Assembly (NCBI GenBank): GCA_964424775.1
Contig: CAYRJZ010000002.1
Coordinates: 73,736 to 137,735 of the forward strand
DNA: 64,000 nucleotides
Direction: 5' to 3'
Source: an uncultured Gammaproteobacteria bacterium
GTDB taxonomy: Bacteria; Patescibacteriota; Microgenomatia; Levybacterales; UBA12049
The notes below the pieces were generated by a model. That model was not told where the DNA came from. It did no database searches and saw only the letters and a list, made by a program, of their open reading frames with translations. The position numbers and the translations under genes are program-made. Of this stretch, positions 12,010 through 49,520 are shown piece after piece. How positions within the stretch are numbered: the stretch's first letter is position 1; each line of letters begins with the position of its first letter.

Positions 12010-13589
12010 GAATTCTTTCAAAAAGACAGAATCTTTTTTTAGTTATAGTTTTACTTCTGATTATTGTAACTCTTTCACTGCTTCTTCGAATTCATTCCTT
12101 TAGTGGTGGTAATTTTTATTTTCTTTTAGACCAGGCAAGAGATATGACTCTTGTTAAAGAGATAGTAGAAAATAGAGATATCACTCTTATTGGTGCCAGG
12201 TCAGGAATAGGGGGAATATTTCATGGCCCACTCTGGCTTTATTTACTTGTTCCAACGTTTGTTTTGAGTGGAGGAAATCCTTATTTTACTCTTGTTCCCA
12301 TTTTTATTCTTTTAACAGTGATTCTAGTTTTGTCCGGATTTTATATTGGATGGAAATTATATGGAGCAAAATATGGACTACTTATAGCTCTTTTCCTTGG
12401 AATTTCCTCTTCTTTTATTGAAAGTATGGCTAATTTTTCTAATGCCCATGTTATGCCACTGATTTTTCTCTTCTTTCTTTACACACTCATACGCTATCTC
12501 AGAGGATATGAAAAAGCTCTCATTGGTAGTGCGTTCTTGATTGGTATTGGTATTCATTTCGAAGCTGCCTTTGCAATTTTTTTAATACCGATTACACTTC
12601 TTACTTTTGTATGGAAGAGAAAATTTCCTCAAATGAAGACCTTATTTAAAAGCACAGTCGTATTTTTCATTACTGTAATAAATTATGTTCTTTTTGAGTT
12701 GAAAAATGGCTTTATTATGACTCGTGCAGCTCTGAATTTAATACTTGGTCATTCAGGTCCAATGGAAGGGTATGAGCAGTATTCAGATGTGTTTTTCAGA
12801 ATAAATGATAGGGTAAGTGTCTTTGTTAATTCTTTTTTTACGCCTTTATTCACACAAACTCAATTAAGTAAAGTGTTGCTGATAATTATTATTATTTCTT
12901 CTTTTGTTTTTACTCTTATACATTTGAAGAAAAAGAAAAGAGAAAAAGATAATTCAGAGTTTTTGTTTCTTCTCCTCATACCTCTAATTATTTCAGCGTT
13001 ATTAGTGATATATCCACATCCTATTTGGCCTCATTATATCCTTCCTTTAGTAATTTCATCAGTGTTTCTATTAGTTTTAGGAATGAAAATCATATCTAAG
13101 CATAAGTTGGGTCATTATTATTCTTGGTTCGCACTTTTAATATTCCTTATCCCAACACTTGGATGGATAGACAATACATATATAAAAGGATACTCTGTGC
13201 CATTATCAAATGGGGCTACATTTCAAAAACAATTAGAAGTTGTAGACTGGGTATTGAATGACGCGGGAAATGAGAAGTTTGGGTATCTTGCTTATACACC
13301 TCAAGTTTTGACATATAACATGGATTATTTAATGTGGTGGAGAAGTAGAGATAAAGGTGTATCACATTATGTCAATAACAAAGAAAGAATTACCTATCTT
13401 CTTCTTCTTCCTCCAAAAGAAGGAGACCTCAAAGCTCATGATTTCTGGAAGAAAAATGTGATACGGACTAATGGGAAAGTGATTGAACGAAAAGTATTTA
13501 GCACAGGTCTTATGGTTGAAAAACTCGAAATTTCCAAGCAAGAACCTCCTGTTGAGTCAACATATTTCCACGGTGCACTCTTCCGATAA
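12006..13589 (+). CDS. GT-C family membrane glycosyltransferase (ArnT/PMT-like)
   Basis: N-terminal TM, then the first-loop acidic motif (LLDQARDM) before a run of about 12 TM helices. The C-terminal soluble domain and layout match the ArnT/PMT_2 family. Confidence 0.45.
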   Translation: MRILSKRQNLFLVIVLLLIIVTLSLLLRIHSFSGGNFYFLLDQARDMTLVKEIVENRDITLIGARSGIGGIFHGPLWLYLLVPTFVLSGGNPYFTLVPIFILLTVILVLSGFYIGWKLYGAKYGLLIALFLGISSSFIESMANFSNAHVMPLIFLFFLYTLIRYLRGYEKALIGSAFLIGIGIHFEAAFAIFLIPITLLTFVWKRKFPQMKTLFKSTVVFFITVINYVLFELKNGFIMTRAALNLILGHSGPMEGYEQYSDVFFRINDRVSVFVNSFFTPLFTQTQLSKVLLIIIIISSFVFTLIHLKKKKREKDNSEFLFLLLIPLIISALLVIYPHPIWPHYILPLVISSVFLLVLGMKIISKHKLGHYYSWFALLIFLIPTLGWIDNTYIKGYSVPLSNGATFQKQLEVVDWVLNDAGNEKFGYLAYTPQVLTYNMDYLMWWRSRDKGVSHYVNNKERITYLLLLPPKEGDLKAHDFWKKNVIRTNGKVIERKVFSTGLMVEKLEISKQEPPVESTYFHGALFR

Positions 13590-16274: not shown

Positions 16275-16829
16275 ATGATTCCGAGAGTAAAAAGAAGAAT
16301 TACAACCGTTGTGTCTGAATATATTGTTTTTTGGCTTCATATTATTGGAACTGTTCCTTCACATACAATAAGGCGTTTTTTCTATCGTCTATCCGGAATT
16401 GAGATTGGAAGAGGATCTACTATTCATATGGGAGCTCGTTTCTATCAACCGGCAAATATCTCAATTGGTAAAGATACCATTGTCGGAGAAGGAGTTGTCT
16501 TAGATGGGAGAGCCAAACTTATTATTGGTAATCATGTAGCAGTAGCATCTGACGTTATGATCTATAACGCTGAACATGATATCCACAGCACAACATTTCA
16601 TGCGATCACGGGAGATGTCTTTATACATGACTATGTCTTTATTGGCCCTCGGGCAATAATTTTACCAGGTGTAACGATTGGAAAAGGCGCTGTCGTTGCC
16701 GCAGGAGCTGTTGTGACGAAAGATGTTAAGCAATACTCAATAGTTGGTGGTGTGCCAGCAAAAGAAATTGGAGAACGAAAAGAAAGAGATCTCACTTATA
16801 GATTGGGGAGATCTGCCTGGTTCAGATAA
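16275..16829 (+). CDS. Hexapeptide-repeat (LbH) acetyltransferase
   Basis: ISIGKDTIVGEGVVLDG...IGNHVAVASDVMIYN...FIGPRAIILPGVTIGKGAVVAAGAVV. Confidence 0.65.
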   Translation: MIPRVKRRITTVVSEYIVFWLHIIGTVPSHTIRRFFYRLSGIEIGRGSTIHMGARFYQPANISIGKDTIVGEGVVLDGRAKLIIGNHVAVASDVMIYNAEHDIHSTTFHAITGDVFIHDYVFIGPRAIILPGVTIGKGAVVAAGAVVTKDVKQYSIVGGVPAKEIGERKERDLTYRLGRSAWFR

Positions 16830-16830
16830 T

Positions 16831-19800
16831 ATGAAGAAATTTTTAAATTTTATAAGTAATAACTCGCTTCTTATCCTTACTTTATTTTTTATTGCATTTA
16901 TTCCTCTTTATCCCAAGCTCCCATTATTTGATATCAAGCATACATGGGTGTATATCCGACTTGAAGATTTATTAGTAGCACTCACATGGGGGGTATTTCT
17001 AATACACCTTATATTGCGTAAAGCAACTCTTAAAACTCCACTTACAGTACCTATATTTACCTTCTGGATTATAGGCGCCTTAGCTACCTTCAATGGTGTA
17101 CTTTTTATTTTTCCAGAGTTACGTGATGTTTTCCCGCAAATAGCTTTTCTACATTATTTGAGAAGGCTTGAATATCTTTCTTTCTTTTTCCTTGCATTTT
17201 CTGCAATCAAGAAAAAATCCTCACTTACACCTGTAATTGTTACTCTCACTGTAACACTTATTGCAATTGTCATATATGGAATCGGGCAGAGAGTATATGG
17301 ATTCCCCGCATTTCTTACGATGAACGAAGAGTTTGCTAAAGGTGTTCCACTTCGCTTATCACCACTCTCACGCGTGGCATCAACTTTTGCAGGTCATTAT
17401 GATTTAGCAGCATACCTTATCCTCCTTATTCCGATAATGGGAGGACTCGTTTTTGGATTTAAGAAGATTTGGCAGAAAGCAATTTTCTTATTTGCTGGAA
17501 CTGGGGCACTTATTCTTCTTTTGATGACTAATTCTCGGGTCTCATTTAGTGTCTATATGGTCTCTATAGTTGTTCTTCTGGTTCTTCTTAAGAAAAAGTT
17601 ATTTATTATTCCTGTTCTAGCACTCAGTATTCTGTTACTCCAATCGTTCCCGGGAATTTCTCAACGATTTGCAAGTACATTTACCCAGGTCGATTTAGCT
17701 GTTGATTCACGAACAGGCAAGCCAATTGGTATCGTTTCAGAAGGAGGAGAGAATGACGGAAAAATTGTTATTGAGGACAAACAATCAACAGGGGAAAATC
17801 TCCCTCAGGGTTCAAAGTATATAAATATTCCATCTACGTCAGGAAGTGAGTTTACATCTGAGATAGTCTATAAAAAACTCCGTCCGGGATCAGGTCAGGA
17901 AAAAATTATCAGTAGGACAGGAGAAGTAATTGTTAAAAAAGCCTTTGCCTATGATGTTTCTTTTACAACACGCCTCCAAGGTGAATGGCCTCGTGCGACA
18001 GAAGCATTTCTGAGAAATATTCTTCTTGGAAGTGGATATTCTTCAATTAATTTAGCAACTGACAACAACTATCTTCGAATATTAGGTGAGACTGGATCAC
18101 TCGGCTTCCTCTCTTTCTTCTTTATTTTTCTGACAATCGGAATATATGCATTTAAAATCCTTCCTGATATTACTGATGCAAGAGCTCGGGCATTTGTCAT
18201 TGGTACAATGAGTGGAATTTTCGGATTATCTTTAAATGCAGTCCTCATTGATGTTTTCGAAGCATCGAAAGTCGCGTTCAGTCTTTGGCTCCTGGTGGGT
18301 GTCCTTATGGGAGTACTCGTTCAATATCAGAAAAAGCCCATACATCTATTTAAAGAAATTAAAGACATTCTATTATCAGTCCCTGCACTGCTCTTGTATC
18401 TTGGAGGGATTGGATTTTTAGTATTTTTATCTGGACTGTCAAATTATTTTGTAGGTGATGATTTTACCTGGTTGAGATGGGCTGCTGATTGTCAGGCAGC
18501 TTTATCACAAAATACAAATGCATGTGGATCTTTCGTCCAGACGATAATTGGCTACTTTACAGATTCACAAAATTTCTTTTATCGACCTGGAACCAAAACA
18601 TACTTTTTCTTGATGTATCCGATATTTGAGCTCTTTCCACTTCCATTTCATGTTGTTTCAGTATTACTTCATGTCGCAGCGGCTTCTTTAATATTTTTTA
18701 TTTTAAATAAATTGTTCGGAAGTAGATTGTGGTCTTTTGTAGGTGCTGTGTTATTTTCAGTATTAAGTACTCACGCCGAGTCTGTGTACTGGATTTCAGT
18801 GACGGGTACCCTCATTACAGCAAATCTTATTCTTTTCAGTCTGCTTATTTTTCTTTACTGGCGAGAAAATAAAAATATTTTTCTATTCCTTCTTATGCTT
18901 CCATCATTACTTGTTGCAACATTCTTTCAGGAATTTGGAGTCATTGGTCCTGTCATGCTTATAGCCTTGGATAGTGTCCTTTCACGAGAAAATGGAGGAG
19001 TTAAAACATTGAGAAAAAATCTACTTTGGTATCTACTTTTATTTGTTCCGGTCATTCTCTATTATATCCTTCGACAAAATGCACAAAGTATTTGGTTTAG
19101 TGGTGATTATAGTTACAATTTGATGAAACTTCCGTTCAATTTTCTAGGCAATGCTGTCGGATATATTTTACTCGCTCTATTTGGTCCCTCATCACTCTCC
19201 TTTTATTCTTTCTTTAGAAATTTGAGCTCTGATAATGTCATAGTTGTTACTCTTTTTGGATTTGTACTGCTAGGAATTGGGTTTTATATTGTTCGAAAAT
19301 ATTACAGTACTATTTCAAAGAAGACATCGTTATACATTATTTTTGGTTTAACTCTCTTTGTTACTTCTCTCCTTCCTTTTTTGGGACTGGGAAATATAGC
19401 ACCACGTTATAATTACCTCGCTTCTTTTGGAATAATAATTATTGTAGTCGTCCTTCTGAGATCAGCTTACACACGGCTCAGTAAGAGATCAAAAGAGACA
19501 GCTATTGCAGTCATTTTTATAACAATTGCACTCTTTGCTTTTTATCATGTCCGGGAACTTCAAAGAATTCAACAAGACTGGAAGAAAGCAGGGGAGATTA
19601 CCAATAATACTTTAGTCAGCTTAAGCTATGCGTATCGAAATACCGATGAAGCCACACCATCTGCTAAAACTTTCTTTTTTGTAAACAAACCTATCAGATA
19701 TGGCGAAGCATGGGTGTTTCCGGTTGGCTTAAATGATGCACTTTGGTTTAGTTTTCAGAGTAAGGATATCAGAATTATCGAATCAAGTGCTGAAGATGAA

Positions 19801-19914
19801 GCATTTAAGAGTGCTCAGAAATTATTGAATGCGCATGTATTTAAATATTTAGACAATGGAGATCTTGTTGAGGTCAGAACAGCTACATCTCCCGCTGAAT
19901 TGAATGAAGAATAA
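16831..19914 (+). CDS. Large (1,027 aa) O-antigen-ligase (Wzy_C) domain fusion membrane protein with a second polytopic domain and a C-terminal soluble domain
   Basis: The start was moved to the in-frame ATG at 16831 (MKKFLNF...); the ORF-track start at 16744 overlaps the upstream gene. Wzy_C signatures are present: MTNSRVSF (T-x-SR) and the periplasmic-loop motif ATDNNYLRILGETGSLGF (H/N-N-Y-L-x-x-L-x-E-x-G). After a soluble linker, a second block of about 10 TM helices follows, then a C-terminal soluble domain. Confidence 0.55.
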   Translation: MKKFLNFISNNSLLILTLFFIAFIPLYPKLPLFDIKHTWVYIRLEDLLVALTWGVFLIHLILRKATLKTPLTVPIFTFWIIGALATFNGVLFIFPELRDVFPQIAFLHYLRRLEYLSFFFLAFSAIKKKSSLTPVIVTLTVTLIAIVIYGIGQRVYGFPAFLTMNEEFAKGVPLRLSPLSRVASTFAGHYDLAAYLILLIPIMGGLVFGFKKIWQKAIFLFAGTGALILLLMTNSRVSFSVYMVSIVVLLVLLKKKLFIIPVLALSILLLQSFPGISQRFASTFTQVDLAVDSRTGKPIGIVSEGGENDGKIVIEDKQSTGENLPQGSKYINIPSTSGSEFTSEIVYKKLRPGSGQEKIISRTGEVIVKKAFAYDVSFTTRLQGEWPRATEAFLRNILLGSGYSSINLATDNNYLRILGETGSLGFLSFFFIFLTIGIYAFKILPDITDARARAFVIGTMSGIFGLSLNAVLIDVFEASKVAFSLWLLVGVLMGVLVQYQKKPIHLFKEIKDILLSVPALLLYLGGIGFLVFLSGLSNYFVGDDFTWLRWAADCQAALSQNTNACGSFVQTIIGYFTDSQNFFYRPGTKTYFFLMYPIFELFPLPFHVVSVLLHVAAASLIFFILNKLFGSRLWSFVGAVLFSVLSTHAESVYWISVTGTLITANLILFSLLIFLYWRENKNIFLFLLMLPSLLVATFFQEFGVIGPVMLIALDSVLSRENGGVKTLRKNLLWYLLLFVPVILYYILRQNAQSIWFSGDYSYNLMKLPFNFLGNAVGYILLALFGPSSLSFYSFFRNLSSDNVIVVTLFGFVLLGIGFYIVRKYYSTISKKTSLYIIFGLTLFVTSLLPFLGLGNIAPRYNYLASFGIIIIVVVLLRSAYTRLSKRSKETAIAVIFITIALFAFYHVRELQRIQQDWKKAGEITNNTLVSLSYAYRNTDEATPSAKTFFFVNKPIRYGEAWVFPVGLNDALWFSFQSKDIRIIESSAEDEAFKSAQKLLNAHVFKYLDNGDLVEVRTATSPAELNEE

Positions 19915-35886: not shown

Positions 35887-36480
35887 ATGATTTGCTATAC
35901 TGTTGAGGTGACAGGAAGAACACACGATTTAGCAGCATTTACTGCCCTCAATATTGTATTGGTAACAGTACCTCTTGAAAAAATGACACTTGCAACAGCT
36001 CTTGTTGCATTCACTGCAAACATGATTGGAGGACTCGCTCCTGATCTTGATCAACCAACTGCAAATTTGTGGAGGAGAATGAGAGGTGGAACACTTATAG
36101 GGAAATTTTTATCTCCCCTTCTTGGTGGACATCGATTTATTTCTCATTCAATCATTGGAATTGTCATGTTTGGAGTGATTACGCAGATAATTTTAGAATT
36201 ACTTAGCTCATTTTTGCTCGTTGATATGAATATTGTCTGGTGGGCTTTTATGATCGGCTTTGTCTCACATCTTATTATGGATACTTTTACCCGGGAAGGA
36301 GTGCCGTGGCTTTTCCCAATCCCACTACACTTCGGAATTCCGCCTATTCGTCTCTTACGTATGAAAACAGGTGGTCTTGCTGAAAAATCCTTTGTTTTTC
36401 CTGTCCTTATTTTTTGTAATGGTGTGCTTATTTATCTTTATTATGAGAAAGTTCTTGAGTTCTTTAAACTTCTAAGATAA
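35887..36480 (+). CDS. Membrane-bound metal-dependent hydrolase, YdjM-like (PF04307)
   Basis: GHRFISHSIIG and HLIMDTFTREGVPWLFPI motifs within a four to five TM protein. Confidence 0.4.
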   Translation: MICYTVEVTGRTHDLAAFTALNIVLVTVPLEKMTLATALVAFTANMIGGLAPDLDQPTANLWRRMRGGTLIGKFLSPLLGGHRFISHSIIGIVMFGVITQIILELLSSFLLVDMNIVWWAFMIGFVSHLIMDTFTREGVPWLFPIPLHFGIPPIRLLRMKTGGLAEKSFVFPVLIFCNGVLIYLYYEKVLEFFKLLR

Positions 36481-36499
36481 CTAGGTATACTACACACGT

Positions 36500-37675
36500 A
36501 TGTGGCAAGATATTAAAAACATTTATCATCTAGGAAAAGCTTTTGGAGCAAATGTGCTCAATGGATATCCGGCAAAGTCATTAACAGTCATTGGGGTTAC
36601 CGGGACAGATGGGAAAACGACAACTGCCACTTTCATTTACAGTATACTTAAGGAGGCAGGTTTCAAGACTGCGCTTATCTCAACAGTTTCAGCAAAAATT
36701 GGGGATAAAGAATATGATACAGGCTTCCACGTCTCGACACCTGACTCTTTAGCACTTCAGTCTTACTTAAAAAGAGCAAAAAAGGATGGAGTAACTCATT
36801 TAGTACTTGAAGTGACATCTCATTCACTAGACCAACATAGGGTTTTTGGAATTCCATTTGCTGTTGGGGTACTCACCAACATTTCTCGTGAGCATCTCGA
36901 CTATCACAAGACAATGGAAAGATATATGTTAGCCAAAGCTCGCTTGTTAAAAAATTCTCGTATAGTTGTTCTGAATAAAGATGATGACAGTTACTCTTTT
37001 TATTCAGATCTTTTGAATGAAAAGAAAATTCTCACTTATTCTTTACATGATAAAAATTCATATACTCCTTCATCAGTTAACATCCATTCTTCTTTACCGG
37101 GTGATTTTAATACATATAATATGCTTGCAGCATATACAGCAACAAAAGCAATTGATATTGACGATAAGATTATCCTAAAAGCTCTTGAAAAAGCACTGTT
37201 GCCAGAAGGAAGATATGACGTTATCTACGATAAAGATTTTAAAATAATTGTTGACTTTGCACATACACCTCGCTCTATTGAACAAGTGCTCCAGACAGTG
37301 AAAGATAGTACCAAAGGACGAGTAATACATGTCTTTGGAAGTGCCGGTCAAAGAGATAAAGGAAAAAGATCACTGATGGGGAAAGCCTCAGCAAAATATG
37401 CTGATGTTATCATTCTTACATCAGAGGACCCGAGGGGAGAAACTGTAGATGAAATCAATAAAATGATAAGAAAAGGAATGAGTGGAAAAGAAAAAGTGCT
37501 TGAGATACCAGATCGAAGTGAGGCAATTCTCAAAGCAGTAACTGAAGCAAAAAAGGGAGATTGTGTCATAATTACAGGAAAAGGTCATGAAAAATCAATG
37601 AATTTTGGAAAAGGTGAAGAACAGTGGAGTGATCATGAGGCTGTTTTGAGCGCATTAAAGGAGAAGAAACTATGA
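36500..37675 (+). CDS. murE: Mur ligase, MurE-like (UDP-MurNAc-L-Ala-D-Glu:diamino acid ligase); lacks the usual N-terminal domain
   Basis: P-loop GVTGTDGKTTT, DFAHTP, GSAGQRDKGKRSLMG (the MurE D-R-D-x-x-K-R-x-x-MG motif). Only 391 aa. Confidence 0.55.
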   Translation: MWQDIKNIYHLGKAFGANVLNGYPAKSLTVIGVTGTDGKTTTATFIYSILKEAGFKTALISTVSAKIGDKEYDTGFHVSTPDSLALQSYLKRAKKDGVTHLVLEVTSHSLDQHRVFGIPFAVGVLTNISREHLDYHKTMERYMLAKARLLKNSRIVVLNKDDDSYSFYSDLLNEKKILTYSLHDKNSYTPSSVNIHSSLPGDFNTYNMLAAYTATKAIDIDDKIILKALEKALLPEGRYDVIYDKDFKIIVDFAHTPRSIEQVLQTVKDSTKGRVIHVFGSAGQRDKGKRSLMGKASAKYADVIILTSEDPRGETVDEINKMIRKGMSGKEKVLEIPDRSEAILKAVTEAKKGDCVIITGKGHEKSMNFGKGEEQWSDHEAVLSALKEKKL

Positions 37676-39093: not shown

Positions 39094-39134
39094 GATAATT
39101 TGTGAAAACTCGAGTTTGACGGTATAATGCATCA

Positions 39135-40467: not shown

Positions 40468-41223
40468 ATGGCAAATAAATCCTCTATATCAGCAGTAATT
40501 CTAGCAGCAGGGAAAGGAAAAAGAATGAATATGCTGGAATCAAATAAAGTGACTGCCAATCTTTTAGATCGGCCCATTGTCACGCATATTGTTTCATTTA
40601 TGGAGGAGTTGGGACTTGGTGCAATTATCGTAGTTGTCGGACATGCAAAAGAGTCTGTTATGGACGCATTGGCAAATAGACCAGTTATATTTACCGAACA
40701 AAAAGAACAGCTAGGAACAGGACACGCGTTATCATGCGCATTAGAAGTGCTTCCAGAAAATATTACTGATCTTTTTGTCGTGTATGGAGATGATGCTGTC
40801 TTTTATAACAAAAATAATAAAGAAATTATGGAATCACTTTTTACCAAACACGCCGAATCAGGAGCGGCAATAACATTTTTAACTATTGAACAGGATAATC
40901 CTCAGGGACTTGGGAGAATTGTGAGAAGTAATGAGGGAAAAGTGAGTGCAATAGTTGAGGAAAAGGATGCATCTGAGGAACAGAAAAGAATAACAGAGAT
41001 CAATCCTGGATGCTTCTTATTTAATGTTGAATTTGTCAAAAAATATCTTCCTCTGGTTGAAAAAAGTCCAGCGACAGGAGAGTATTATCTAACAAGTCTT
41101 ATTGATATAGCTATTGAGCATGAAGAGTTAGTTGAAACGGTTCGTGGTGGGAAATTGGCTTGGAGAGGTGTTAATACGCCAGAAGAATTAGAAGAAGCAG
41201 AAAAAATGATGAAGTCTTTTTAA
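40468..41223 (+). CDS. GlmU-like sugar-1-phosphate uridylyltransferase domain protein (no LbH acetyltransferase domain)
   Basis: AVILAAGKGKRM and QLGTGHAL match the GlmU N-domain motifs. Only 251 aa. Confidence 0.6.
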   Translation: MANKSSISAVILAAGKGKRMNMLESNKVTANLLDRPIVTHIVSFMEELGLGAIIVVVGHAKESVMDALANRPVIFTEQKEQLGTGHALSCALEVLPENITDLFVVYGDDAVFYNKNNKEIMESLFTKHAESGAAITFLTIEQDNPQGLGRIVRSNEGKVSAIVEEKDASEEQKRITEINPGCFLFNVEFVKKYLPLVEKSPATGEYYLTSLIDIAIEHEELVETVRGGKLAWRGVNTPEELEEAEKMMKSF

Positions 41224-41224
41224 T

Positions 41225-41668
41225 ATGGAAAATAATATTATTATTGAAGAAGCGACATTCCATTCACAAGAAATTCATAATGCGATTAAGCATCTTGTCA
41301 AACAGCTTGGTAAAGGTGGTCAGGAATTAATGTCTGAGGATACCAAGCAGATGATCGACTCTCCGACGACTTTTCTTTTTCTTGCAAAAGTTCAGGATAC
41401 GCAGGAAATAGTCGGGATGATAACACTTATCACCTATAGAATTCCTTACAAAATGAAAGGAATACTTGAAGACTTTGTCGTTGATGAGTCATTTAGGGGT
41501 AAAAAAATTGGTGAGAAACTTCTGATGCATGCACTTGAAAAAGCACGTAGTCTCTCAATTAGTTCAGTTGATTTAACATCACATCCGTCCCGCGAAGCTG
41601 CCAATAGGTTATATAATAAAATGGGATTTGAAAAGAGAGAAACAAATGTCTACAGAGTACACCTTTAG
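41225..41668 (+). CDS. GNAT-family N-acetyltransferase
   Basis: DFVVDESFRGKKIGEKLLMHALEKAR is the acetyl-CoA binding motif A (R/Q-x-x-G-x-G/A). Confidence 0.6.
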   Translation: MENNIIIEEATFHSQEIHNAIKHLVKQLGKGGQELMSEDTKQMIDSPTTFLFLAKVQDTQEIVGMITLITYRIPYKMKGILEDFVVDESFRGKKIGEKLLMHALEKARSLSISSVDLTSHPSREAANRLYNKMGFEKRETNVYRVHL

Positions 41669-41669
41669 T

Positions 41670-42368
41670 TTATATTTCAATTGAGAGAGGTAAGTGATCT
41701 GACGCCTCTGATGAATGGATAAGAAAATTTCTTGACGGGATATTTCTGGAAGTAAAGATATAGTCAATTCTATATGTTGTCTTATCCGGATCTTTAAGAT
41801 CAGTAAATGAAGACTGAGTGAGCTCACTGTCAGTATTTATTAGAAGTGAGGAAAACGTTGCAATGACTCGACTTGTTGGAACTGAATTGAAATCTCCCAT
41901 AAGGATGACATTCTCACGGTCTTGTATAAGTTGAACTAATTTTCCTGTTTGTCTGTCTCGAAGGTCTGATTCACCAAATTTTTCTGAATAACCAAGGTGC
42001 GTTGAGAAAATTGTCAGTCTCGAATTGTGATAAGGTATCGTAACTTCAACAGCTGTCCGTGGTTCTGTAACAGATGAGCCTTTATAATCCTCAAGACTAC
42101 TTAATTCATGACAAACGGAGGAGAGTGGTTTGTCTTTTGTGAGAATTGCATTTCCTAAATCGTAGACTGGGGTGTGCCGATCTGTTGTAAAAGATTTACA
42201 GTAACTGACGTGATAACCAAGTTGTTGTGCGAGGTATTCAGCATGATTGACTCCATTCAGTGTCTTCACTTCCTGGAGTCCAATAACGTCAGGTTTTTGT
42301 TTCTGAAGAAATTCTTTTACCTCTTCAAGATTTTTTCCTCCCCAAATATTCCATGTCACAATGAACAT
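41670..42368 (-). CDS. Endonuclease/exonuclease/phosphatase (EEP) family protein
   Basis: VTWNIWGG, GLQEV, LMGDFNS and SDHLPL, which are the EEP catalytic motifs. Confidence 0.7.
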   Translation of the reverse strand: MFIVTWNIWGGKNLEEVKEFLQKQKPDVIGLQEVKTLNGVNHAEYLAQQLGYHVSYCKSFTTDRHTPVYDLGNAILTKDKPLSSVCHELSSLEDYKGSSVTEPRTAVEVTIPYHNSRLTIFSTHLGYSEKFGESDLRDRQTGKLVQLIQDRENVILMGDFNSVPTSRVIATFSSLLINTDSELTQSSFTDLKDPDKTTYRIDYIFTSRNIPSRNFLIHSSEASDHLPLSIEI

Positions 42369-42444: not shown

Positions 42445-44205
42445 ATGTGTGGAATATTTGGGTATATTGGTGAGAAAAATAATGCTTCAGAAATCGTCCT
42501 TTCAGGCCTTAAAAAATTAGAGTATAGAGGGTATGATTCATGGGGAATTGCTTCGCAAGTACAAAAAACAATTGAGATAGATAAGCATGTAGGCAAAATT
42601 GGAAATGCCATTACATCAGATCACCCTTCATCTCTTGCGATAGGCCATACGAGGTGGGCGACTCATGGCGGTGTTACTGTCGAAAACGCACATCCGCATT
42701 TCGACTGTTCACAGCAAATCGCTCTTCTTCACAATGGTATTGTTGAAAATCATGAAGACGTAAAAAATAATTTACTGCAAAGAAAACACACGTTTCGTTC
42801 CCAAACAGATACTGAGGTAGTTGTCCATCTTATTGAGGAATTAGCAAAAGATTATTCATTTGAAGAAGCAGTGAGGAAAGCTTTTCTTCAGCTCCATGGA
42901 CTCAATGCAATTGTAGTTATCAATAATAATGATAATAAAATTATTGCGTGTAAAAATGGTTCGCCTCTTGTTGTGGGAGTTGGGGAGAAAGAGTTATTTC
43001 TTGCCTCAGATGCTTCAGGAATTATCTCACATACTCGAAAACTCATTTTTTTGAAAGACAATGAGATGGCAACTCTTACGGATAAAGTTGTCATCCACTC
43101 TATTTCAACAGGAAAAGAAATTGCATCAGAAATTGAAGAAGTTGATTGGGAAATAAGTAATACTAAACTTGGAGCTTTTGACCATTACATGTTGAAAGAA
43201 ATATATGATCAGGAACAGATAATTAAGAATATGAGTATGACCTCAACTGACGAAATCAATCATATTGTTGAGGTCATTAAAAATGCAAAAGGTACATTTT
43301 TTATAGGTGCGGGAACTGCGTATTATGCATGTCTTATGGGAACATACCTTTTTTCAAAAATAGCAGGAAAGCATGTCAATACAGCTGTTGCGTCTGAATT
43401 TAATTATCTGGAAGATTTTCTCAATGAGAAAAGTCTCGTCATTGCTTTTTCTCAATCAGGAGAAACAATTGATGTTATTGAACCATTACAACGTGCAAAG
43501 AAGAGAGGATCTCGAATAGTTGGAATAGTAAATTCATTGGGGTCAACAATTTATCGAATGGCAGATAACAAAGTTCTTTTGAATGCAGGCCCTGAGTTGG
43601 CAGTCGCGTCGACAAAAGCATATACAGCAAAGTTAAGTACTCTTCTCCTCATGGCTGGACTTTTAAGTAATAAAAAAGAAGATATTCAAAAAAGTCTCCT
43701 GCGAGCTTCTGAAGAAGTAAAAAGACTTCTTCTTCCACAATCTATTCAGGTCATAAAAAGTTTGGCTCAAGAACTTTCTGATGTAGAACATATTTATACA
43801 ATTGGACGAGGAATTTCCTATCCGTCGGCACTTGAGGCTGCTTTAAAAATAAAAGAAGTGACGTATATTCATACAGAGGGGCTCGCCGGTGGCGAATTAA
43901 AACATGGAACAATTGCACTTATTTCGAAAGGGACACCATGTATTGTTTTTGCACCAAATGATGAAACCTATGAAGCGATCATTTCAAACGCCACAGAAAT
44001 AAAAGCACGTGGAGGGAAAATAATTGGAATAAGTTACCGGCCAAATTCTGTTTTTGATCACTATATTGAAGTGAAAGATTGTCTGGATGCATCAGGAATT
44101 GCACAAATTATTCCGGTACAACTTCTCGCATATTATCTTGCTCTCGAGAAGAAATTAGACCCAGACAAACCTCGTAATCTAGCAAAAAGTGTCACAGTTA
44201 AATAA
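42445..44205 (+). CDS. glmS: Glutamine--fructose-6-phosphate aminotransferase GlmS
   Basis: MCGIFGYIG (Ntn Cys1), two SIS domains, and a C-terminal ...KPRNLAKSVTVK. Confidence 0.9.
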   Translation: MCGIFGYIGEKNNASEIVLSGLKKLEYRGYDSWGIASQVQKTIEIDKHVGKIGNAITSDHPSSLAIGHTRWATHGGVTVENAHPHFDCSQQIALLHNGIVENHEDVKNNLLQRKHTFRSQTDTEVVVHLIEELAKDYSFEEAVRKAFLQLHGLNAIVVINNNDNKIIACKNGSPLVVGVGEKELFLASDASGIISHTRKLIFLKDNEMATLTDKVVIHSISTGKEIASEIEEVDWEISNTKLGAFDHYMLKEIYDQEQIIKNMSMTSTDEINHIVEVIKNAKGTFFIGAGTAYYACLMGTYLFSKIAGKHVNTAVASEFNYLEDFLNEKSLVIAFSQSGETIDVIEPLQRAKKRGSRIVGIVNSLGSTIYRMADNKVLLNAGPELAVASTKAYTAKLSTLLLMAGLLSNKKEDIQKSLLRASEEVKRLLLPQSIQVIKSLAQELSDVEHIYTIGRGISYPSALEAALKIKEVTYIHTEGLAGGELKHGTIALISKGTPCIVFAPNDETYEAIISNATEIKARGGKIIGISYRPNSVFDHYIEVKDCLDASGIAQIIPVQLLAYYLALEKKLDPDKPRNLAKSVTVK

Positions 44206-44225: not shown

Positions 44226-45809
44226 ATGGATACAGATTTACTCTTTATTTTGACGTCCGTTTGTTTTTTTCTATGGACATTCCGTTCAATTTTTTACTGG
44301 CTTGAAGCATGGCAGAGAGTAGATTATAAACCCCAGGATATTGTTTCCAATGTATTTATTAAAAGACGATTTATTCGATATTTTTTTTCTCCAACATCTC
44401 TTGTAACGTGGGGTAGTATTGGTGCTGCGCTTTATATAAGTATTTCAGATATTCCTATTGAATGGTATCAACTTCTTATTCTGGGAGTGTTTTGCATCAA
44501 AGCGAGTATTGTCTTAATAGGTATTATTAAAAATTCAGTTGTTAAGGCGAAAATTAATCTACGGTCATCCATGATAATGCTTATCTCTTTTTTAATTCTC
44601 CTTTTACTGTTTATGTTTCCACTTACTGAAAAATATTTATGGTTGCTTGTCATTGATCGGCTAAAAATGTTTGTAGTTGGAGGTGTTATTTCACTATTTG
44701 TATTCCCCAGTGAAATTTATGAAGATATTGTTTTTCGTAGAGCAGTCTCAAAATTACAAAATTTTAAAAAAATAAAGATAATTCTCTTTGTAGGTGATGG
44801 AAATGCAGAGATTACAAAGTGGTATACCTCAAAATTTTTGAAAAAGATAGGCAGAGTGCTTGTGGCACCAGAGAGTCAGAATGTCTCAGATCTTGCTCAC
44901 TTTATTAACAAAAGTTTGACACAAGAACATAAATTCCTGTTACTTACTCTTTCATCTCTAAAAGATGAAAAATTAATATCTTTTGTTCAGTCACTATCTA
45001 TTGATACCTGTGTCTGGACAAATACGATAACAGATAGCAAACACAAACTCATACAGGGAAGAATTAAAGTGAAAAAATTAATTATTCCTGAGGAGTTATT
45101 TATTCAGGATAGAACATATGTAAAAGGCAACAAAATTATTTTACTTTCTACCAAACAAATTGAGAAGGAAATCCCTCATACGAGTAATGTTTGTATACAA
45201 AATTTGTCTGAACATAAAAATATAACAAAAGTTGAATTATTGACAAATATTCATGAGTATATTCTTGTCTTTCCATTTGTCAGTTCTATTCATACCCAAG
45301 CTGCTTTACTGGCTGTTATAGTAGCTTATCATGAAGGATTAACAAAAAAAGAGATAGAAAAAACTTCAAAAGATCTTTTCTCCTATCCACACACTCTTAC
45401 ACAGCATCTGCAAAGAAATGGTGACGTCGTTATTGATAATACAAGTGTATTTGCTCTTCTCTTTCTCAAAGATGGAATGAAGATAATGTCAAAAATGAAA
45501 AAAAAGAAAGTTATTATTCTGGGTGTTGAAGACACCAATCTAACAAAAAATGAAAGCACGCGAATTGGTGATGAACTTAAGGGGAAAGCTGATTATGTCA
45601 TTCTTCTCAATTCAAATAATGAATTTAATAAACATATTCGTAAAACACTCCACACCAAGAGTAATTCAACTTTGGTCATGAATAGTAATGAGAAAAAGGC
45701 TCTGCAATTTTTTCAAGATCATGAAAGTAATTCTGTGTACTTTTTTCACGGTCAAAAAGCACAAAAGTTATGTGAACGAACAATTGCATCTTTTGGATCA
45801 ACAGCATAA
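44226..45809 (+). CDS. Divergent MurF-like protein: N-terminal four-TM region replaces the MurF N-domain, and the P-loop is degenerate
   Basis: It sits in the murF slot immediately upstream of mraY. The central segment KIILFVGDGNAEITKW aligns with the MurF VxITGSNGKTTTK, but the GKT lysine and threonine are lost. EHKFLLLTLSSLKDEKL aligns with EHDFAVIEMGANHQGEI, and VWTNTITDSKH with VNNLAAAH. In the C-domain, VVIDNTS...KKVIILGVEDTNLTKNESTRIGDELKGKADYVILLN aligns with LIDDSYNAN...VLVVGDMAELG...HxxVGxxxxxxxIDxVxxxG. Confidence 0.45.
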   Translation: MDTDLLFILTSVCFFLWTFRSIFYWLEAWQRVDYKPQDIVSNVFIKRRFIRYFFSPTSLVTWGSIGAALYISISDIPIEWYQLLILGVFCIKASIVLIGIIKNSVVKAKINLRSSMIMLISFLILLLLFMFPLTEKYLWLLVIDRLKMFVVGGVISLFVFPSEIYEDIVFRRAVSKLQNFKKIKIILFVGDGNAEITKWYTSKFLKKIGRVLVAPESQNVSDLAHFINKSLTQEHKFLLLTLSSLKDEKLISFVQSLSIDTCVWTNTITDSKHKLIQGRIKVKKLIIPEELFIQDRTYVKGNKIILLSTKQIEKEIPHTSNVCIQNLSEHKNITKVELLTNIHEYILVFPFVSSIHTQAALLAVIVAYHEGLTKKEIEKTSKDLFSYPHTLTQHLQRNGDVVIDNTSVFALLFLKDGMKIMSKMKKKKVIILGVEDTNLTKNESTRIGDELKGKADYVILLNSNNEFNKHIRKTLHTKSNSTLVMNSNEKKALQFFQDHESNSVYFFHGQKAQKLCERTIASFGSTA

Positions 45810-45850: not shown

Positions 45851-46861
45851 ATGGCAACATTGCTGGGACTAACAATTTTTTCATTTTTCTTTACTATCAT
45901 TCTCCTTATTCCATTTATTGATTTTCTTTACCGAATTAAACTTCGAAGACAACATCAGGTCACCAAGGATATGTTCGATCAACATACACCCTTATTTGAT
46001 AAATATCATAAGTGGAAAGCAGGCACTCCCATTGGAGGTGGAATACTTGTTATTTTTCTTACCTCAATTATTACCATGTGGGCGTACGGCATACTTTCTA
46101 TAAATGTAAAGCCCTGGGAGTTATTTGTTATCTTCTTCTCTTTTATAAGTTTTGGAATTCTTGGTTTGTATGATGATGCAAAAAAGTTAGTTGACTCAAA
46201 GAATGCTACATTTTTTGGTCTCCGTTTTCGACATAAATTTATTATCCAGTGGGTACTCGCACTCATTATTGCTACCGTTTTCTATGTGCAACTCGGATAT
46301 TCCTTTGTCTATATACATGGATTTGGGTTAGTCAGTATCGGTGCACTTTTTATTCCATTTGCAGCATTTGTTATTGTTTCATTTGTAAATGCTGTGAATA
46401 TTGCAGATGGTCTTGATGGATTGGCGTCAGGACTTCTTGTTATATGTCTTGTTGCTTTTCTCGCAATTAACTCCCAGCAAATTGATCGCTCGCTGGGAGT
46501 ATTTATTTCTGTATTGTTGGGGTCAGTAATGGCATTTCTTTACTTCAATATTTATAAAGCTCGAATTTGGTTAGGGGATGTCGGAGCGTTGTCTCTTGGT
46601 GCTGCTCTTGCAGTCATTGGGTTATTAACAGGGAAGACTTTGACTCTTGCAGTTGTTGGAGGAGTATTTATCATTGAGATTGCATCATCACTTCTTCAAA
46701 TTTTGAGCAAGAAATATTTACACAAAAAATTATTTCCTGCAGCGCCATTTCATCTTTTTCTTCAACAGAGAGGATGGGAGGAACCAAAGATTGTTATGAG
46801 GGCATGGCTCATCGGAATATTTTTTGGAGTACTTGGTGTTTATCTTGCTTTCTTAACATAA
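45851..46861 (+). CDS. mraY: Phospho-N-acetylmuramoyl-pentapeptide transferase MraY
   Basis: NAVNIADGLDGLASG, ARIWLGDVGALSLGAALAVIG, about 10 TM. Confidence 0.9.
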   Translation: MATLLGLTIFSFFFTIILLIPFIDFLYRIKLRRQHQVTKDMFDQHTPLFDKYHKWKAGTPIGGGILVIFLTSIITMWAYGILSINVKPWELFVIFFSFISFGILGLYDDAKKLVDSKNATFFGLRFRHKFIIQWVLALIIATVFYVQLGYSFVYIHGFGLVSIGALFIPFAAFVIVSFVNAVNIADGLDGLASGLLVICLVAFLAINSQQIDRSLGVFISVLLGSVMAFLYFNIYKARIWLGDVGALSLGAALAVIGLLTGKTLTLAVVGGVFIIEIASSLLQILSKKYLHKKLFPAAPFHLFLQQRGWEEPKIVMRAWLIGIFFGVLGVYLAFLT

Positions 46862-46873
46862 ATTTTATTATTC

Positions 46874-47983
46874 ATGAGAACTGCCACTCAACTTCGTCGA
46901 CCTGATTTTATTCTTTTAGGCGCAACACTTTTTCTTGTTGTCTTTGGCCTCTTTATGATTTACAACGCTTCTTCAGTAATAGGGTTTCGTGATTTTGGAG
47001 ATAAATATTACTACATTAAAGAACAGTCATTTAATGCTATTTTTGGTTTTAGTGCATTGATTTTTTTCTTCTTCTTTGACTACAAAAGGCTTTATACTCT
47101 CGCTCTTCCCATTCTTTGTGCTGCGATAATTTTGCTTATTGCAGTCTTTTTACCGGGAGTCGGTGTCTATGCACTTGGTGCACATCGTTGGGTAAATATT
47201 GGATTCACTGTACTCCAGCCAGCAGAATTTGTGAAATTAAGTCTTGCTATTTATTTAGCTGCTTGGTTTTCAAATAAGGAAAGAGAACGGTTTTTAGCAT
47301 TCAGTATGCTGCTTGGACTAGTTCTTCTTCTTGTTATGCTTCAGCCAGATATGGGAACAGGATCAATCATACTTTTTGAAGCTATAGTTCTTTATTTTCT
47401 TTCCGGAGCAAGTATTTCTCATTTCCTGTTAATGATTCCTGCAGTTGGAGTCATTGGAGCTCTTCTTATATTACTTGCTCCCTATAGACTTGCGCGATTG
47501 ACAGCCTTTTTAAATATGGGACAAAATTTTGAGAATACGTCATATCATGTCAAGCAAATTCTCATCGCACTCGGGTCAGGCGGGTTGATGGGTGTAGGAG
47601 CCGGTAACTCATTACAAAAATACGCTTATCTGCCAGAAAATGTAACAGACTCAATATTTGCAATCATTGCTGAAGAGTTTGGATTTTTAGGATCACTTGC
47701 TCTCATAATTGTCATTTTTACTGTTGTGTGGAGGGGTTTTTACATCTCAGTCCATGCAAAAGATATGTTTGGCAGACTTCTTGCAGCTGGTATTATCTCA
47801 TTCTTAGGAATTCAGGCTGTAATCAATTTAGCAGCCATGTCTGCTCTTATCCCACTCACTGGAGTTCCTCTGCCATTCATCTCATATGGAGGGTCTGCAC
47901 TTATTGTAGATTTGGCAGCAATAGGTATACTCCTCAACATTTCCATGCAGTCTCACCACGCAAAAAAAGGTATAATACACTAG
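46874..47983 (+). CDS. ftsW: SEDS-family peptidoglycan glycosyltransferase FtsW
   Basis: LQPDMGTG, EEFGFLGSL, PLTGVPLPFISYGGSALI. Confidence 0.85.
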   Translation: MRTATQLRRPDFILLGATLFLVVFGLFMIYNASSVIGFRDFGDKYYYIKEQSFNAIFGFSALIFFFFFDYKRLYTLALPILCAAIILLIAVFLPGVGVYALGAHRWVNIGFTVLQPAEFVKLSLAIYLAAWFSNKERERFLAFSMLLGLVLLLVMLQPDMGTGSIILFEAIVLYFLSGASISHFLLMIPAVGVIGALLILLAPYRLARLTAFLNMGQNFENTSYHVKQILIALGSGGLMGVGAGNSLQKYAYLPENVTDSIFAIIAEEFGFLGSLALIIVIFTVVWRGFYISVHAKDMFGRLLAAGIISFLGIQAVINLAAMSALIPLTGVPLPFISYGGSALIVDLAAIGILLNISMQSHHAKKGIIH

Positions 47984-47989
47984 AAGTAT

Positions 47990-49102
47990 ATGAAAATTGC
48001 ACTTATTGGAGGCCACCTTTCTCCATCCCTTGCAGTTATAGATAAAATTTCCTCAGATCATACACTCATTTTTTATGGAAGAAAGCATACTTTTGAAGGA
48101 GATACTGCTGTTAGTCTTGAATATAAAGTCATTACTGAAAAAAATATTCCTTTTATATCTTTGAGGACAGGTAGACTGCAACGCTCCTTAACTCGTCACA
48201 CACTTCCATCCCTTGGGAAATTACCTTTAGGATATTTTCAGTCACTTAAATCTCTAAAGAATGAGGGAGTTGATTGTGTTGTGTCATTCGGAGGCTATCT
48301 TTCCATTCCTGTTTGTACTGCAGCGCGGACACTACATATTCCTATTGTTATTCATGAACAAACGACAGAGGCGGGCTTTGCAAATAAAATGGTTGGGAAA
48401 TTTGCGAGTAAGGTCTGTATCTCATGGGAGTCATCAAGAGCTTTTTTCCCTAAAGAAAAGATCGTGTTAACTGGCAATCCACTACGTGTCTACAAAGATG
48501 AGAAAGCTTATAGAATTTTACAGACTGAAAAAGAAACTCCCTTACTCTATATTACAGGTGGAAGCTCGGGATCACACGTTCTGAATACACTTATTGAACA
48601 ATCCTTGCCTGAATTACTCAAAAAATACAGGGTTCTCCATCAGACGGGGGATGCACAAGAATTTAAAGACTATGATCGACTTGTAAGGCTCCGAGATACA
48701 CTTCCAACAGATCTCCAAAAGAGATATGAGCTCCATAAATTCATCACACCGGAAAGTGTCAAGTCCGTACTTACATCAAGTTCCTTAGTTATTAGCCGGT
48801 CGGGGATAAATACGGTCACCGAACTGTTGTTTTTTGGAGTACCGTCACTTTTGATCCCGCTTCCGACAGGCCAGAAAAATGAACAGTATACCAATGCACA
48901 GTTTTTGAAGAAAGTTGGGAGTGCTGAGGTCCTTGAGCAGAAAGACGCTACTGCTGAGGCACTACTAGACCATGTTGAGAGAATAGTACATAATAGATCA
49001 TACATGGAGAATGCTGTGAAGGGTCGATCTCTTGTTCGTCCTGACGCGGCAGAAAAAATTGTCCAGGTAATTATCGATGCTGCCCAGAAAAAGACTACTT
49101 AA
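47990..49102 (+). CDS. murG: Undecaprenyldiphospho-muramoylpentapeptide beta-N-acetylglucosaminyltransferase MurG
   Basis: MKIALIGGHLSP, ITGGSSGSH, SRSGINTVTELLFFGVPSLLIP. Confidence 0.85.
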   Translation: MKIALIGGHLSPSLAVIDKISSDHTLIFYGRKHTFEGDTAVSLEYKVITEKNIPFISLRTGRLQRSLTRHTLPSLGKLPLGYFQSLKSLKNEGVDCVVSFGGYLSIPVCTAARTLHIPIVIHEQTTEAGFANKMVGKFASKVCISWESSRAFFPKEKIVLTGNPLRVYKDEKAYRILQTEKETPLLYITGGSSGSHVLNTLIEQSLPELLKKYRVLHQTGDAQEFKDYDRLVRLRDTLPTDLQKRYELHKFITPESVKSVLTSSSLVISRSGINTVTELLFFGVPSLLIPLPTGQKNEQYTNAQFLKKVGSAEVLEQKDATAEALLDHVERIVHNRSYMENAVKGRSLVRPDAAEKIVQVIIDAAQKKTT

Positions 49103-49520
49103 AAAAGAAAAACATGTTCAAGCAAAAAAGAGAATGCTTTTTATCTCTTTTATAACCGGACTGCTTGGATTCTCTCTCATAGGAGTCGGGATCCTTGTTC
49201 TTCTCAAGGAGCCTCCATTTATCAGCCCGCTTCCTATTTTTCGACCTCTTCAGGCAGATGCAGAGAGTAAGGCAAAGAAGAAGGATATTGAACGTCTGTT
49301 AAAAGAAAAGAATATTGAGTATGAGAATATCCAGCAGGTTAAAAGTGGTATTTATACATTTGATGTTTCCGGACACGGTGAAGTGACAATTAGCACGAAA
49401 AAAGAGCTAAATCCGCAACTGTCCTCTTTACAAGTCATCCTTGTTCGACTTACAATGGAAGGTAAGAAATTTAAGAGGCTTGACGTGCGCTTCGACAGGC
49501 CGATTATTGTGTTGCAATGA
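49077..49520 (+). CDS. Small bitopic protein in the ftsQ/divIB slot (FtsQ-like, no POTRA domain)
   Basis: Basic N-terminus, one TM, and a roughly 100 aa beta-rich ectodomain between murG and ftsA. The assignment is positional. Confidence 0.35.
   Translation: MLPRKRLLKKEKHVQAKKRMLFISFITGLLGFSLIGVGILVLLKEPPFISPLPIFRPLQADAESKAKKKDIERLLKEKNIEYENIQQVKSGIYTFDVSGHGEVTISTKKELNPQLSSLQVILVRLTMEGKKFKRLDVRFDRPIIVLQ

Follow-up and report, generated by a model that had tools for sequence, protein, structure and literature searches.

A membrane-anchored MurF-like protein without the catalytic motifs of MurF, encoded directly upstream of mraY

Introduction

MurF is the ATP-dependent enzyme (EC 6.3.2.10) that adds D-Ala-D-Ala to the wall precursor UDP-MurNAc-tripeptide, and it is treated as an antibiotic target. 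To our knowledge, it is regarded as an essential, soluble and universally conserved step of wall-precursor synthesis. A physical coupling between the Mur ligases and MraY has long been suspected. At the locus described here, a gene derived from murF keeps the place beside mraY and its product has lost the residues of the active site. The analysis covered a window of 64,000 nucleotides (nt; 64 kb), the whole stretch of contig CAYRJZ010000002.1 presented above, and gene coordinates are positions of this window. The open reading frame (ORF) in question, 44226..45809 on the + strand, starts with ATG and encodes a product of 527 amino acids (aa). An initial annotation, made from the letters, had placed it in the murF slot directly upstream of mraY. 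The gene indeed starts 20 nt past the stop of glmS and ends 41 nt ahead of mraY.

The ORF encodes a MurF-derived protein of a membrane-anchored family, as the listing of ORFs, a structural model, the fold and the alignments agree. The protein lacks the whole set of catalytic and substrate-binding residues and is nevertheless under selection. The explanation that we favour, and consider moderately probable when taken as a whole, is that of a non-catalytic, membrane-anchored descendant of MurF that works with MraY at the membrane.

Homology and Fold

The window protein is barely visible to the family databases. Pfam gives only a sub-threshold Mur_ligase_C match over the C-terminal part, and the sole NCBIfam match is TIGR01143 (murF; E-value (E) 3.7e-5, 22.9 bits), which covers the C-terminal part as well. 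The curated cut-off of TIGR01143 is 288.6 bits, and the protein does not reach MurF membership. The same family matches 15 of the 15 members of the clade around the window protein (best E 4e-18), and no other family matches as many. A sequence search of the PDB with the clade profile returned a chance match only. An ordinary MurF overlooked by annotation was ruled out, every motif being absent and the score lying far under the family cut-off.

The kinship becomes clear through relatives that keep the active site, called canonical below. One of them, P0004 (538 aa), shares the N-terminal membrane region and has the canonical P-loop GSYGKTTT together with the Pfam domains Mur_ligase_M and Mur_ligase_C. 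It aligns with the window protein over 501 columns (BLASTP, E 3e-9), and the sequence GDGNAEIT is set column for column on GSYGKTTT. The profile of the 15-member query clade aligns with that of 13 canonical members over 522 columns (hhalign, probability 100, E 1.7e-85). The canonical family profile in turn finds MurF in the PDB at 1e-46 to 1e-45 and MurE at 1e-17, and it pairs with the MurF structures only from residue 72-76 on.

The AlphaFold2 model of the window protein, built on an alignment of 96 sequences, has a pLDDT of 92.7 and a pTM of 0.89. Residues 1-180 form five long helices and a short cytoplasmic hairpin, and residues 181-527 form two alpha/beta domains, which have the central ATPase-type and C-terminal Rossmann-like folds of the Mur ligase superfamily. 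Foldseek against the PDB ranks MurF first (Acinetobacter, Pseudomonas, E. coli and Thermotoga; top structures 4qf5, 4cvm and 1gg4), with E 1e-16 and target-normalised TM-scores of 0.58-0.64. MurE, MurC, MurD, MurT and cyanophycin synthetase follow. The fold matches at E<=0.001 number 145, and the best 50 of these 145 are nearly all Mur-family ligases. The initial annotation had made its assignment depend on a Mur-ligase relationship being found by hidden Markov model (HMM) searches, and the HMM and fold searches both confirm the kinship with MurF.

The Membrane-Anchored MurF-Like Family

The family was collected by a HMMER search of 1.84 billion cluster representatives with a three-sequence profile. 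It comprises 261 proteins at E<=1e-3, of which 112 reach E<=1e-10; among the 150 matches listed, most have 520-550 aa and align end to end. The window protein belongs to it by end-to-end similarity and by the membrane motifs W..WQ, PL(T)[ED], WLLxxDR and FP[ST]ExYxD. Word-indexed searches gave only two close relatives, with 81% and 43% identity, and the distant P0004.

The 100 listed matches of at least 480 aa were aligned, and each was scored for eight catalytic residues. The scores are mostly bimodal with few intermediates, and they separate 57 canonical sequences from 32 degenerate ones, the window protein included. The canonical group carries the motifs GSYGK[ST][ST], E-[ML]-G, [ND]-x-Q-H-L, G-x-H-N-x-x-N, DD[ST][FY]NxNP and [IL]-E-L-G, and the degenerate group carries none of them. 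TIGR01143 is the best NCBIfam family of the canonical group (up to 3e-73), and some of these proteins are named MurF or 'Mur ligase family protein' in Pacebacteria, Woesebacteria and a few Bacilli-type bins. On the few source names available, the membrane-anchored MurF seems to come mainly from bacteria of the candidate phyla radiation. Canonical-profile matches were also obtained from other bins, namely P0182 ('Bacilli bacterium', 60% of the query covered) and P0250 ('Candidatus Coproplasma sp.', 97%), and therefore the architecture may not be confined to that radiation.

A third architecture consists of the membrane and central domains only. It is seen in L015:2435-3619 and in about 20 cluster representatives of 367-408 aa (e.g. 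P0028, P0036, P0044 and P0045), which stop precisely where the central domain would pass into the C-terminal one. Most of these short forms have degenerate P-loops and a few still have GSxGK[ST] (e.g. P0032, P0040 and P0061). The gene of P0036 lies directly upstream of mraY, with an intergenic gap of 100 nt. The association with mraY thus survives the loss of the motifs and of the C-terminal domain.

In full-text literature searches, neither the membrane architecture nor the degenerate clade turned out to have been described. The canonical form already bears the name MurF in the databases; the degenerate proteins have no precomputed Pfam domain and no name, and their clade is undescribed in the searchable literature.

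Loss of the Catalytic Motifs

The central Mur-ligase domain (aa 181-385; 44766..45380, +) keeps the ATPase fold, according to the model and its matches to MurF, and has lost the active site. The initial annotation had seen GDGNAEIT (aa 190-197; 44793..44816, +) as the replacement of the Walker-A P-loop GxxGK[ST][ST], and it was right in this, since BLASTP pairs the segment with GSYGKTTT of P0004 and hhalign with GSYGKSST. The column of the P-loop Lys is K in 100% of the 57 canonical members, and A in 34%, T in 18% and K in 15% of the 32 degenerate ones. A misaligned P-loop with the lysine elsewhere, which the initial annotation had named as grounds against its own reading, was ruled out, as the profile-profile alignment and the per-column statistics place no conserved GK[ST] lysine at any other position.

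The other motifs of the domain have met the same fate. EHKFLLLTLSS (aa 234-244; 44925..44957, +) occupies the E-x-G position of the magnesium site in the family alignment, with the Glu changed to Thr241, and is aligned through the canonical profile to 'yaviELGAnhqGEI' of E. coli MurF. WTNTITDSKH (aa 264-273; 45015..45044, +) occupies the position of [ND]-x-Q-H-L, where the canonical consensus is GISxQHLSLFGS, and the motif is lost. In FVSSIHTQAALL (aa 351-362; 45276..45311, +), at the L-G-x-H-N-x-x-N position of the family alignment, the Asn is lost; column 359 is N in 92% of the canonical members and Y, S or A in the degenerate ones.

The C-terminal Mur-ligase domain (aa 386-527; 45381..45806, +), defined by the model and by the Mur_ligase_C and TIGR01143 matches, likewise keeps its fold and has lost its binding motifs. 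VVIDNTSVFA (aa 401-410; 45426..45455, +) is a remnant of D-D-[ST]-[FY]-N-x-N-P in which the first Asp alone is kept. This D404 is found in 71% of the degenerate group and 94% of the canonical one. The second Asp and the Asn, which 87% and 85% of the canonical members have, respectively, are missing. At ILGVEDTNL (aa 431-439; 45516..45542, +) the [IL]-E-L-G motif is lost; the canonical members have E435 in 100%, L436 in 92% and G437 in 96%, and these columns are unconserved in the degenerate group. Taken over both domains, K194, E241, N288 and E435 are present in 100% of the canonical relatives and N359, D405, N408, H444 and E508 in 85-94%, and all nine positions are unconserved in the degenerate group. 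The motif pairings with MurF made in the initial annotation hold in the family alignment and, through the canonical profile, against E. coli MurF.

Judged from these sequences, the window protein is very probably catalytically inactive. The initial annotation had left the choice between a pseudo-enzyme and a divergent ligase with an altered nucleotide site. The latter would still be ATP-dependent, with a remodelled site and perhaps a substrate other than D-Ala-D-Ala, and some observations speak for it: the model shows the entire fold with high confidence, purifying selection acts on the gene, and no other murF is seen in the window. The wall transpeptidase FtsI also looks active, and D-Ala-D-Ala addition is presumably still needed. 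Furthermore, the two closest relatives, which read GNGKAEIA and GDEKAEIT at the P-loop, have a Lys one position ahead of the canonical one. However, this shifted Lys is an Asn in the window protein itself, and the substitute of the P-loop varies freely in the degenerate group and is often acidic. The loss is not limited to the P-loop, all six motif groups having gone together, and neither the site nor its surroundings show a substitute residue that the clade conserves. Some relatives encoded in the same slot are devoid of the whole C-terminal domain, the one that binds the substrate. The unconserved motif columns, the variable P-loop substitute and the C-terminal-less relatives strongly favour the pseudo-enzyme, and a remodelled ligase is very unlikely.

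Membrane Domain and Shift of Constraint

The N-terminal UDP-MurNAc-binding domain 1 of MurF is absent. Its place is taken by a membrane domain at aa 1-180 (44226..44765, +), for which the AlphaFold2 model predicts five membrane-spanning helices (residues 2-31, 56-74, 78-101, 112-130 and 136-179) and a short cytoplasmic helical hairpin. The initial annotation was right about the replacement; its size of about 170 aa is corrected to about 180 aa and its roughly four helices to five, the count of four having arisen because helix 2 is weakly hydrophobic. The basic residues concentrate in the loops 32-55 and 102-113 and past residue 160. By the positive-inside rule, the N-terminus is predicted to lie outside and the ligase-like part in the cytoplasm.

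After helix 1, RVDYKPQD (aa 31-38; 44316..44339, +) is the remnant of a cytoplasmic K-E-Y-R-x-D-R loop. In the canonical members this loop is well conserved (K 84%, Y 94%, R 82%, D 82% and R 89%) and in the degenerate group it is unconserved. We infer that it belongs to the catalytic apparatus, where it may stand in for the missing UDP-binding domain.

The opposite trend is seen in other parts of the membrane domain. The segment FPLTEKYLWLLVIDR (aa 131-145; 44616..44660, +) comprises a conserved outer loop and the start of helix 5 with an intramembrane Asp-Arg pair. In the degenerate group, P132 is conserved in 96%, W139 in 96%, D144 in 75% and R145 in 78%, and in the canonical members the same residues reach 26%, 40%, 54% and 29%, respectively. 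In the 15-member clade, P132 and L133 are invariant and T134 and E135 nearly so. At the conserved cytoplasmic end of helix 5, FPSEIYED (aa 160-167; 44703..44726, +), the degenerate and canonical values are 96% versus 78% for P161, 93% versus 33% for E163 and 90% versus 24% for D167. In all, D4, F14, W17, R20, W25, P132, W139, R145, E163 and D167 are far better conserved in the degenerate group than in the canonical one.

The selection acting on the gene was estimated by a codon-level comparison of the window ORF with the 81%-identical relative on locus L002. The ratio of nonsynonymous to synonymous substitution rates (dN/dS) is 0.115 for the whole ORF; by domain, it is lowest in the membrane domain (0.07), followed by the C-terminal (0.09) and the central (0.148) domain. 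These values indicate purifying selection throughout the gene. The neighbouring wall and division genes have values of 0.013-0.094, with MraY, FtsW and MurA at about 0.02, and the central domain evolves faster than any neighbouring gene compared. A pseudogene was ruled out by the dN/dS and by the breadth of conservation. The neighbour-joining tree points the same way, the degenerate forms making up a large and deeply diverged clade. With the fold kept, the catalytic residues lost and the gene as a whole under purifying selection, the protein is a pseudo-enzyme in the operational sense.

Pairwise identities tell where the constraint lies. Among the canonical members they are 24% in the membrane domain, 38% in the central domain and 29% in the C-terminal domain; in the query clade they are 41%, 21% and 26%, respectively. 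The central domain is thus the best-conserved part of the canonical membrane-anchored MurF and the worst-conserved part in the clade of the window protein. The constraint has moved from the ATPase domain to the membrane domain.

This shift could mean that the membrane domain is a working unit independent of MraY, which handles a lipid-linked or phosphorylated ligand or senses the outer face, and that the ligase-like body is merely a folded cytoplasmic appendage or dimerisation module. The strongest conservation of the clade lies in this domain, with charged residues in or at the edge of the membrane (R20, D144, R145, E163 and D167) and two conserved outer loops (D75-x-P77 and P132-L-T-E135), and these residues are better conserved in the degenerate group than in the active relatives. 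The top Foldseek matches of the domain, to transporters of the MOP superfamily, are non-significant, and the searches by structure and by sequence gave no significant relative. With five helices in 180 aa, the domain is also small for a transporter. The soluble domains are themselves under purifying selection (dN/dS 0.09-0.15) and are therefore not mere appendages, and the invariant adjacency to mraY would be left unexplained. An autonomous membrane domain is, on this evidence, rather unlikely.

Gene Order and the Association with MraY

The gene has a fixed place in the division and cell-wall (dcw) cluster. Its upstream neighbour glmS (42445..44205, +), which defines the slot, was identified from the translation and through syntenic counterparts (GATase and SIS domains, phmmer matches). 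Its downstream neighbour mraY (45851..46861, +; TIGR00445, E 5.8e-53) is the proposed functional partner. Both are conserved neighbours. The cluster begins on the + strand with mraZ, rsmH, ftsI, a gene for a YdjM-family membrane protein, a murE of 391 codons, murC and murA. It continues with a glmU that encodes the uridyltransferase only, a GNAT acetyltransferase gene, an oppositely oriented gene of the endonuclease/exonuclease/phosphatase family and glmS. It ends with the ORF 44226..45809, mraY, ftsW (46874-47983), murG (47990-49102), a small ORF in the ftsQ position, ftsA and ftsZ.

The order glmS, MurF-like gene, mraY, ftsW, murG, small ORF, ftsA and ftsZ is common to the window and the related loci. 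It is complete in a Candidatus Levyibacteriota bin (L001), in L002, on the contig of the 43%-identical relative, on three metagenome contigs (L004-L006) and with the more distant degenerate P0029 (L013 and L014). The slot between glmS and mraY holds the degenerate MurF-like gene in each related locus that extends that far. The MurF-type position directly upstream of mraY is occupied in the window and in all related loci reaching far enough, namely L001, L002, L004-L006, L013, L014, L015 and the P0003 contig. This makes ten related loci, and among them is a form without the C-terminal domain.

The canonical relatives have related surroundings. P0027 has the identical order glmS, MurF, mraY and ftsW, P0016 lies directly upstream of mraY, and P0157 follows glmS and a hydrolase in an otherwise matching cluster; P0017 has an alanine racemase as neighbour. 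By its slot, the window protein thus corresponds to a genuine MurF.

The favoured explanation can now be set out. The ORF descends from a membrane-anchored MurF in which a five-helix domain took the place of the UDP-binding N-terminal domain. ATP would no longer be bound through the MurF site and D-Ala-D-Ala no longer ligated, leaving a pseudo-enzyme. The retained function would be located in the membrane domain and the ligase-like body kept as a folded cytoplasmic module. If D-Ala-D-Ala is still added, another enzyme, encoded outside the window, would do so. For the part of this explanation that places the retained role at the membrane together with MraY, we see an even chance. It draws on the conserved adjacency and on a two-hybrid interaction between MurF and MraY in Caulobacter, as cited in a passage of PMC6420597.

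Several points weigh against this explanation. The adjacency to mraY is inherited from the dcw cluster and is for this reason weak evidence of a physical partnership. In the neighbour-joining tree all degenerate sequences fall in one large, deeply branching clade, which may be inflated by long-branch attraction. The Pfam and fold searches gave no significant relative of the membrane domain that could point to an activity. The window and the related loci, which reach up to 21 kb, yielded no second murF, and the step in which catalysis is handed to another enzyme is unsupported.

Other Mur Genes and the D-Ala-D-Ala Question

The search for a replacement enzyme covered the six-frame ORFs of the window. 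The canonical MurF HMM found this ORF (1e-53), MurE and MurC only, and phmmer with MurC and MurE queries gave the same three proteins and no second Mur ligase. Pfam scans of the other window ORFs of at least 150 aa did not find MurB, MurD or Ddl. No murD lies between mraY and ftsW (46862-46873), elsewhere in the 64 kb or in the related loci, and none was found in the canonical-MurF loci L011 and L012. The window also has no ddl and no alanine racemase gene. On the other hand, FtsI keeps the STFK, SDN and KTG motifs, and together with the strong constraint on MraY, FtsW and MurA this means that a precursor ending in D-Ala-D-Ala is presumably still needed. Literature searches on the loss of Mur genes in these bacteria found nothing specific.

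Two other genes of the pathway are altered. In the canonical locus, murB lies between murC and murA (L012:3209-4186). A copy at L004:3154-4128 is 41% identical, and at L013:4439-5158 the gene is truncated to the FAD-binding part of 239 aa. By tblastn, no trace of murB was found anywhere in the window, where the gap between murC and murA is 39094-39134, or in L002. The gene may have been eroded stepwise or relocated in the lineages with the degenerate MurF-like gene. The MurE of the window (36500-37675, +; 391 aa) matches TIGR01085 from model position 74 on with 383.8 bits, above the cut-off, and has no N-terminal UDP-binding domain. Short MurE proteins (391-403 aa, Mur_ligase_M and Mur_ligase_C only) occur in the loci of the degenerate lineage and also in the canonical L012 (398 aa), and therefore the MurE and the MurF of this group both lack domain 1. 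The gene of the YdjM-family membrane protein (35887-36480, +) lies 20 nt upstream of murE.

An erosion of the pathway could suggest that the MurF-like gene is itself a functionless relic, in a lineage that is dismantling cytoplasmic wall-precursor synthesis and relying on a host. The apparent decay of murB along the same lineages, from the intact canonical locus through L004 and L013 to the window, and the window without a visible murD, ddl or murB would fit this view. A relic is hardly credible, however, for a reading frame that is intact in more than 30 cluster representatives sharing less than 50% identity, with the dN/dS of 0.115 for the whole gene and 0.07 for the membrane domain. The conservation of the membrane domain has risen, not fallen, and the other wall genes of the cluster are under very strong constraint.

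Other Features of the Window

GlmU (40468-41223, +) is reduced to the uridyltransferase half (251 aa, TIGR01173 positions 2-237 of 452), and a GNAT acetyltransferase of 147 aa (41225-41668, +) replaces the left-handed beta-helix acetyltransferase domain. The related loci vary in this respect: a full-length GlmU-like protein with hexapeptide repeats is encoded in L012, such a protein together with a short uridyltransferase in L004, and the two halves by separate genes in L015. The gene of the endonuclease/exonuclease/phosphatase family (41670-42368, -) interrupts the otherwise co-directional wall cluster. It is present in L002, and on the contig of the 43%-identical relative its position is taken by a + strand gene for a protein of 217 aa with no family assigned. 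The small ORF in the ftsQ position (49077-49520, +; 147 aa) shares 26 nt with the end of murG, and its product has a single hydrophobic stretch, at the N-terminus. It has no Pfam match, and phmmer shows its conservation across all related loci (E 1e-37 to 1e-42).

A cluster for glycosyltransferases and surface polysaccharide takes up the first 26 kb. In it, large ORFs of 706, 296, 527, 529 and 174 aa (9011-13589, + and 3167-5270, +) have no Pfam match at E<=1e-5, and a protein of 1056 aa (16744-19914) has only a weak O-antigen-ligase (Wzy_C) match. No Rfam family at the gathering threshold and no tRNA gene was found in the 64 kb. The GC content varies between 28 and 44%, and the coding sequence is almost wholly on the + strand.

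Comparison with Known Systems and Significance

The window protein shares with MurF (TIGR01143; PDB 1GG4, 4CVM, 4QF5 and 3ZL8) the central and C-terminal folds and the position upstream of mraY. Unlike MurF, it has a five-helix membrane domain for the UDP-binding domain and is devoid of the P-loop, the magnesium-site Glu, NxQHL, HNxxN, DDSYNxNP and ELG. The closest counterpart is the canonical membrane-anchored MurF (P0027, P0016, P0157 and P0004). Both have the same three-part architecture and length, align end to end, share the motifs W..LWQ, PL(T)[ED], WLLxxDR and FP[ST]ExYxD, and are encoded in the order glmS, the gene itself, mraY and ftsW. The canonical protein, however, keeps every catalytic motif and the KEYRxDR loop, and the window protein keeps none.

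Two further members of the superfamily invite comparison. MurT, of the MurT/GatD lipid II amidotransferase (Foldseek ranks 43-44), likewise does without the classical N-terminal domain and has a membrane-bound precursor as its substrate. But its ATP site is still active, its partner is the glutaminase GatD and it contains no membrane domain, and the window ORF has no gatD-like gene beside it. PAP11, a MurE-like component of the plant plastid-encoded RNA polymerase (PDB 9EPC and 8R6S chain Q), holds Foldseek ranks 19 and 24. It is proposed to stabilise the core of the plastid RNA polymerase, and whether it retains catalysis is stated to be undetermined (PMC11561172). By analogy, PAP11 is a precedent for a Mur-ligase fold kept for an apparently structural role. 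Unlike the window protein, it is a eukaryotic protein derived from MurE, soluble and part of a transcription complex, with no membrane domain and no link to MraY.

The finding means, in the first place, that a membrane-anchored MurF exists, which carries the name MurF in the databases and is not discussed in the searchable literature. A large clade has kept this protein beside mraY long after losing every catalytic residue, and the constraint is now on the membrane domain. The finding also poses the question of how the pentapeptide is finished in these bacteria. A bolder proposal, which we consider doubtful, is that throughout an old clade of the Microgenomates type the sole MurF has become a membrane protein that works with MraY and is no longer catalytic. 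If this were true, the stem peptide would be finished without a MurF-type enzyme, possibly by an unrelated ligase, from host-derived precursors or by action on a lipid-linked intermediate. In that case, the MurE without domain 1 and the apparent erosion of murB would belong to a single re-wiring of the cytoplasmic Mur pathway. With its canonical, degenerate and C-terminal-less forms, the family offers a natural separation-of-function series on the suspected coupling of Mur ligases to MraY, and a non-enzymatic role of MurF at the membrane is therefore directly testable.

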